This document shows positions 53,664-53,780 of a stretch of DNA of 64,000 bases, one piece after another. The translations under genes and the position numbers were made by a program. Origin of the DNA: Escherichia coli (lineage in GTDB: Bacteria > Pseudomonadota > Gammaproteobacteria > Enterobacterales > Enterobacteriaceae); NCBI RefSeq assembly GCF_045037415.1, contig NZ_CP173438.1; one strand, written 5' to 3'. The first letter of the stretch is position 1; each line of letters opens with the position of its first letter. The notes beneath the pieces are model-generated. The model did no database searches. It saw only the letters and a program-made list of their open reading frames with translations, and had not been told where the DNA came from.

Positions 53664-53780
53664 CTTCACTAAACCTTGTTTAGTTAATTGCGTGATTATT
53701 CCGCGAAAACATTGCCAGATTGTTCAATACACTGCCACAAATCTTTTAATTCAGTATGTCTTGTTAATATTGAGGGCACC

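Follow-up and report, generated by a model that had tools for sequence, protein, structure and literature searches.

The window analysed here, the whole 64-kb stretch of Escherichia coli DNA, contains the yph locus. RefSeq, for an identical E. coli sequence, annotates yphH (52470–53663, minus strand) as a ROK family protein of 397 aa, the presumed binder in what follows. The divergent gene yphG (53781–57062, plus strand), the presumed target, encodes a 1093-aa protein with DUF5107 and TPR repeats. The start codons, at 53663 on the minus strand and 53781 on the plus strand, delimit a 117-bp divergent spacer. Downstream of yphG lies yphF (57159–58142, plus strand), annotated as the sugar-binding protein of an ABC transporter, followed by yphEDCB. 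The products of the locus are YphG, an ABC sugar transporter, a dehydrogenase and a mutarotase, and no other regulator gene is present within it. Gene content differs between clades. In a Raoultella-type locus (L025, 3059–9887), an MFS sugar transporter and an aldose epimerase follow yphG, replacing the yphFED ABC system and the dehydrogenase gene yphC; from this replacement in a distant clade, the conserved core of the cluster consists of the regulator, the DUF5107 protein, a transporter and a mutarotase. Klebsiella pneumoniae has orthologues of yphG and yphH only. A supplementary table for Shigella flexneri M90T shows yphG broken up into a number of short ORFs, pointing to a pseudogene.

YphH contains a ROK domain at residues 115–337 (Pfam PF00480, 114.4 bits against a cut-off of 22.9). 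Its closest solved relative is Mlc, and the alignment of the two proteins covers residues 9–333 (E = 2e-23), including the N-terminal winged-helix DNA-binding domain. A Pfam match of residues 16–53 to a MarR-type winged helix-turn-helix (wHTH) scored below the cut-off (20.9 against 24.6 bits). The zinc motif CxCGxxGCxE occurs as CDCGRYGCLE at residues 250–259, aligned with CYCGNHGCLE in Mlc. With the ROK domain, the N-terminal wHTH and the zinc motif all present, YphH has the architecture of a ROK-family repressor. The presumed recognition helix, ISIPAVSNIL, is nearly invariant among YphH orthologues, which fits the unchanged operator core described below. The literature counts YphH, so far uncharacterised, as the third ROK repressor in E. 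coli, and it is placed in a small separate branch of the family in which the linker carries RG replacing the GR motif.

The plus strand at 53668–53684 reads ACTAAAC CTT GTTTAGT, confirming the perfect 7-3-7 inverted repeat that a sequence-only reading of the window had placed just outside the yphH start. In the yphH sense (minus strand), the region reads ACTAAAC-AAG-GTTTAGT-GAAG-ATG, with the 17-bp palindrome located 5–21 nt upstream of the yphH start and 4 nt separating it from the ATG. This yphH-proximal operator candidate, defined by its sequence, conservation and matrix scores, is referred to here as O_H. With the symmetric flanks T-11/A+11 included, the site becomes a 23-mer (53665–53687), which ends 2 nt before the yphH ATG. 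Read in the yphH sense, the loop of the palindrome holds an AAGG that is the probable Shine-Dalgarno sequence of yphH. A GTG at 53669 was considered as an alternative yphH start and rejected, since all orthologues align at the ATG and many of them lack the GTG.

Taken by itself, the palindrome is weakly above chance. The window contains eight perfect 7-3-7 repeats, compared with 4.7 ± 2.3 expected from first-order Markov simulations. The probability of one such repeat in a 118-bp sequence of spacer composition is about 0.014, or about 0.11 if any loop of 0–10 nt is allowed. The significance of the site derives from its conservation and recurrence, and not from the inverted repeat as such. Within the species, a 45-mer around O_H is identical in 5019 of 5426 complete E. 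coli genomes, with a single occurrence per genome. In E. coli XJ5.2 (NZ_CP074354.1), a 601-base stretch around the spacer is matched over its first 170 bases only, so that the yphH 5' end or the spacer is disrupted in this strain.

Conservation across genera was assessed using 20 yphH loci obtained from a scan of one genome per species, with YphH identities of 59–97%. At least six genera are covered, namely Escherichia, Pluralibacter, Enterobacter, Citrobacter, Raoultella and Leclercia. In all 20 loci, yphG lies divergently upstream of yphH with a spacer of about 117 bp, and O_H is found at the same position, down to 59% YphH identity. Column identity, calculated from 13 non-redundant sequences, is 0.88–0.95 in the O_H arms and 0.56 in the 3-bp centre, compared with a spacer background of 0.66–0.71. 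Conservation at yphH orthologue promoters, which the sequence-only reading had set as a test, is therefore observed, with conserved arms and a variable centre. Among these loci, the contig CACSKA010000009.1 (L006) is titled Chryseobacterium sp. 18061 and carries a fully syntenic enterobacterial yphH-yphG-yphF with 81–85% protein identity to E. coli; this assembly is probably mislabelled or contaminated.

Seven positions of O_H are invariant and are arranged in dyad pairs, comprising the complementary pairs T-6/A+6, A-4/T+4 and A-3/T+3, and the pairs A-8/T+8 and T-11/A+11 are nearly invariant. The complementarity of the invariant bases around the centre suggests a dimeric DNA-binding protein, and such dyad-paired invariance would be unlike the trace of a Shine-Dalgarno sequence or a -10 element. 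The left arm ACTAAAC is found in Escherichia only. The other genera have AGTAAAC, AGTTAAC or AGTTAAG, with G at both -7 and +7, and 4–7 of 8 symmetric pairs. Since these genera carry AGT(A/T)AAC on the left, the perfect symmetry is a derived Escherichia state resulting from a G-to-C change. The other genomes share a quasi-palindromic site, and the perfect symmetry does not extend beyond Escherichia. In the E. coli 23-mer, 9 of 11 arm pairs are complementary, and across genera symmetric conservation spans positions -11 to +11. The conserved motif can be written from these alignments as a predicted 23-bp quasi-palindrome, T-W-N-A-S-T-W-A-A-C-N3-G-T-T-W-A-S-T-N-W-A.

A weight matrix trained on yphH-proximal sites only was used to scan whole loci, leaving out the species tested. 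The scan revealed a second site, equally strong, at a fixed offset of -3390 from O_H. This site, O_F (57058–57074, minus strand; 23-mer 57055–57077), is counted below as the third site of the locus, and reads AGTTAAT-AGG-GTTTAGT in the yphH sense. It spans the yphG TAA codon (57060–57062), at the start of the 96-bp yphG-yphF spacer, and yphF is the first gene after it. For scanning the window, the matrix was built from non-Escherichia O_H sites only. With the 17-mer matrix, O_F (22.5 bits) and O_H (22.2 bits) are the two best matches in the 64 kb, the third scoring 13.3 bits; the mean maximum in simulated windows was 13.9 ± 2.2 bits, and 1 of 200 reached 22.3 bits. With the 23-mer matrix, O_F scores 29.9 bits and O_H 27.6 bits, compared with 10.9 bits for the best unrelated match. 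The third-best 17-mer match, at 26238–26254, was rejected as a YphH target, its score being at chance level and its position coinciding with the nadB NAD box. The sequence around it (26235–26257), TGTTTA-GTAAAT-TAAACA, shares one arm with the yph motif and lies upstream of a 540-aa ORF beginning MNTLPEH, which we take to be nadB; the site itself resembles a NadR NAD box.

Across genera, the arms of O_F are kept and its centre varies. Its 17-mer is invariant in seven E. coli sequences, with local polymorphism in the flanks, although 5 of its 17 nt belong to the yphG His and stop codons (CAC TAA), which puts part of the site under coding constraint. O_F is present only in the clade with yphF after yphG. 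Within this clade, loci with a long yphG-yphF spacer carry an intact O_F, apart from locus L007 (9.8 bits), and loci with a short spacer, without the hairpin described below, carry a degenerate one. No equivalent was found at the junction of yphG with the MFS transporter gene in the Raoultella/Klebsiella-type locus. Two other matrix matches were noted in these scans. One, TGTTAACGTTnTTnAGT, recurs in some genera about 186 bp beyond O_F, within the 5' coding region of yphF, and is absent in E. coli. The other, AGTCAGCAGCGTTAAGT, is an 11.9-bit match inside the yphG coding sequence of the distant clade, and probably reflects coding conservation.

A weak yphG-proximal site, O_G, was identified at 53753–53769 (minus strand). 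Its sequence in the yphH sense, TATTAAC-AAG-ACATACT, fits the motif well in the left half and poorly in the right. In E. coli, its centre lies 85 bp from that of O_H, or about eight helical turns. O_G is the best remaining spacer match in 21 of 21 loci, always at -84/-85 and in the same orientation, and is represented by three diverged sequence versions; its fixed offset is partly non-independent, because the spacer length is itself conserved. Its scores range from 4.5 to 10.7 bits, and it ranks 1–15 among about 9150 positions per locus. In the window, the O_G 23-mer scores 9.0 bits (rank 9 of 127,956). Its identity is 0.82, with seven invariant positions. O_H, O_G and O_F all have the same orientation; this, together with the G at -7 and +7, is not predicted for a purely symmetric dimer.

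All 26 invariant positions of the divergent spacer fall in four blocks: O_H, O_G, a TAnACT hexamer and a TCACGC block. The hexamer, TACACT in E. coli (53728–53733, plus strand), is invariant at 5 of 6 positions in all orthologues and lies inside the O_H–O_G interval. It is the probable -10 element of yphG; O_G would then span about +11 to +33 in the yphG leader. The fourth block, AATAATCACGCAA in the yphH sense (53688–53700, minus strand), adjoins O_H and is as conserved (0.91 identity, seven invariant positions), with TCACGC (53690–53695) invariant in 19 orthologues. Possible roles for this block are those of a yphH core-promoter or discriminator element, or of a site for a second factor. On the plus strand, the block contains a direct repeat with an 11-bp period, ATTGCG/ATTCCG. 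For the yphH -10 element there are two candidates: a TAnAGT hexamer over the outer left arm of O_H, which is weak (TTAACT) in E. coli, and AATAAT inside the TCACGC block. Depending on the candidate, O_H is predicted to lie over roughly -12 to +11 or roughly +2 to +24 of yphH, and both positions would be compatible with repression. A scan found no consensus sigma-70 promoter in the yphH-yphG or yphG-yphF spacer, and Kim et al. 2012 list no transcription start site for b2549 and b2550. By eye, no acceptable CRP site was seen in the spacer, GCGTGA being at best a lone half-site.

In the yphG-yphF spacer, a GC-rich hairpin with a 9-bp stem (57083–57105, plus strand; -15.9 kcal/mol, without a U-tract) lies 9 nt downstream of O_F, and is conserved wherever this spacer is long. 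The hairpin is nested within an outer repeat, TTTGAGCG/CGCTCAAA. After the hairpin, a -10-like hexamer is found at 57118–57123, TAAAAT here and TAGAAT in most E. coli and other genera, which suggests an internal yphF promoter. O_F would lie about 64 bp upstream of the start estimated from this hexamer, which was read by eye; such a position is activator-like rather than repressor-like. Just before O_F, the final 45 nt of yphG coding sequence contain a terminator-like hairpin (57014–57047) consisting of GGCATTAT...GTGATGCC followed by TTTTATTTTT, the T-run after it being found in Escherichia only.

The observed sequence, its position-specific conservation, its dyad pattern, its recurrence and its specificity within the 64-kb window point to the palindrome as the core of an operator, and we consider it probable that YphH binds there. 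The weakness of O_G, the coding constraint on part of O_F and its activator-like position, the lack of a consensus sigma-70 match and the departures from dimer symmetry weigh against this reading. The assignment of YphH as the likely binder derives from co-localisation. O_H, O_G and O_F are placed at the yphH start, in the yphG leader and at the yphG-yphF junction, beside the gene of their presumed regulator and the adjacent sugar-use genes. A literature search found no published YphH binding sites or experiments on such sites. The candidate YphH operator proposed by the sequence-only reading is, as a prediction, supported by ortholog conservation, motif recurrence and a ROK-like 23-bp form.

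Co-localisation would also be compatible with a conserved site for a different regulator, for example a global factor, a nucleoid-associated one or a sugar regulator encoded elsewhere. The separate conserved TCACGC block, as another element acting in the spacer, and the asymmetry that recurs at ±7, which is not usual for symmetric dimers, would fit such a regulator as well. However, both strong matches in the 64 kb lie inside the yph locus, which has no second regulator gene, and all genomes examined have the site together with yphH, even in the clade whose transporter differs. The order and spacing of the arms, compared by eye, are also unlike those of NadR, TyrR, CRP, IHF and LacI family operators, and a regulator other than YphH seems unlikely. 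We regard as quite unlikely the possibility that no dedicated regulator is involved, with a coincidental palindrome formed by overlapping core signals of yphH (a -10-like TAnAGT, a Shine-Dalgarno sequence and the start context). Consistent with this possibility, the palindrome by itself is marginally non-random, most genera have a -10-like hexamer (TAAAGT, TACAGT, TATAGT) at -11 to -6, and the purine-rich centre (AAGG, GGAG) lies at Shine-Dalgarno distance from the ATG. Yet GTTWAGT, located between the Shine-Dalgarno sequence and the ATG, is among the best conserved stretches, and in Escherichia the putative -10 element is degraded to TTAACT while the site remains tightly conserved. Core signals leave the dyad pairing of the invariant positions unexplained; nor do they account for the same 23-mer at the yphG stop codon, which scores 29.9 bits with a non-Shine-Dalgarno centre, or for the motif occurring again beside yphG, on the non-coding strand.

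The palindrome could in principle also act in the yphH mRNA, as a hairpin that presents the Shine-Dalgarno sequence in its loop and tunes or gates translation initiation. The 31-nt E. coli leader does fold into an exact 7-bp stem with an AAG loop (-4.8 kcal/mol, z = -2.4), but the stem is weak and A-U rich, and in a 67-nt context folding is no better than in shuffled sequences (z = -0.6). Of 19 orthologues examined, 15 have lost the second pair, 7 the fourth and 6 the seventh, and covariation does not exceed that of shuffles, 63 of 500 of which reach it. The stem is absent from the Citrobacter and Leclercia folds, O_F does not fold, and the left arm would be untranscribed if the -10 element is the TAnAGT hexamer. 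A search of 53400–57400 against Rfam returned no family at E ≤ 1. With a stem confined to Escherichia, pairs broken in most genera and no excess covariation, a Shine-Dalgarno-sequestering RNA hairpin was rejected, and we consider an RNA-level function highly improbable.

If YphH binds at O_H, as we favour, the locus may operate as follows, with details that are less probable than the binding itself; we infer the repressive effect, the looping and the promoter positions alike. Without a sugar inducer, YphH dimers or tetramers would occupy O_H and cooperatively fill the weak O_G through a short DNA loop between the two sites. This loop would enclose both divergent core promoters, leading to autorepression of yphH and repression of yphG. 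O_F would add separate control of the transporter and enzyme genes yphFEDCB. The sequence-only reading had suggested that the palindrome could also control the yphG side; such control is possible, though not by this palindrome alone, and would probably be exerted through the separate weak site O_G, 85 bp away, and, in the yphF-containing clade, through O_F. A more specific reading, which we offer tentatively and hold to be doubtful, is a three-operator YphH circuit. In this circuit, the eight-turn O_H–O_G loop would shut both genes, and O_F, over the stop codon and upstream of the GC hairpin, would split the control of yphG from that of yphFEDCB, possibly through activation or gating of an internal promoter some 64 bp downstream. 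The G at -7 and +7 and the identical orientation of the three sites would then reflect oriented, rather than symmetric, recognition by a ROK protein.

The closest comparison is with the divergent nagE-nagBACD region controlled by NagC. As in that system, the yph locus combines a ROK protein with an N-terminal wHTH and, as predicted sites, a strong and a weak 23-bp quasi-palindrome in a divergent spacer. The weak nagE operator is repressed only via cooperative looping of NagC to the strong nagB operator, and the yph strong and weak sites, compared with the nag arrangement, are spaced by an integral number of helical turns. The operators of NagC and Mlc are quasi-palindromes numbered from -11 to +11, in which the only invariant positions are TT/AA at +/-5,6. 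An invariant T/A pair at ±6 is shared by NagC and yph sites: T-6 and A+6 show no variation in O_H, O_G or O_F. Position ±5 is T/A in NagC sites, whereas it is W (A or T) in the yph sites, and the full TT...AA at ±5,6 occurs only in the Citrobacter/Raoultella-type O_H. The yph arms further differ in carrying A-A-C/G-T-T at ±2–4. The geometry is the same, but since the arm sequence differs, the yph sites are not NagC or Mlc sites. Other differences are the linker, RG in YphH and GGRR in NagC, and the arrangement of the predicted yph operators, which adjoin start codons and include a third site 3.39 kb away.

Mlc operators, such as those of ptsG and mlc, belong to the same operator class and have A/T at ±11, as does O_H. 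They differ in their half-site, and Mlc governs a dispersed regulon, unlike the YphH motif, which was seen only in its own locus among the 64-kb window and the yph loci. The mlc gene is autoregulated, and Mlc loses activity through sequestration to the glucose transporter rather than through a small-molecule inducer. A similar type of prediction to ours, from comparative genomics, was made for the ROK regulons of Thermotogae, in which autoregulated ROK genes lie next to sugar transporter and enzyme operons that are preceded by 23-bp palindromic motifs (Kazanov et al. 2013, PMC3553997). Several of these predictions were later validated experimentally. The result is also alike, with motifs beside the ROK gene; the phylum, motif sequences and sugars are different, and in yph one operator candidate straddles a stop codon within the cluster. 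Published ROK regulators are autoregulated and have 23-bp quasi-palindromic operators, in agreement with the expectation of the sequence-only reading that members of the family control themselves through palindromes of this kind.

The yph motif would be an ordinary kind of switch and introduces no new regulatory principle. A defined motif with three concrete sites provides a direct entry to studying YphH and its pathway, and release of YphH from these sites, used as a read-out, could identify the sugar of the pathway. The yph locus may also represent a second natural example, besides nagE-nagB, of a ROK regulator that pairs a weak operator with a strong one.
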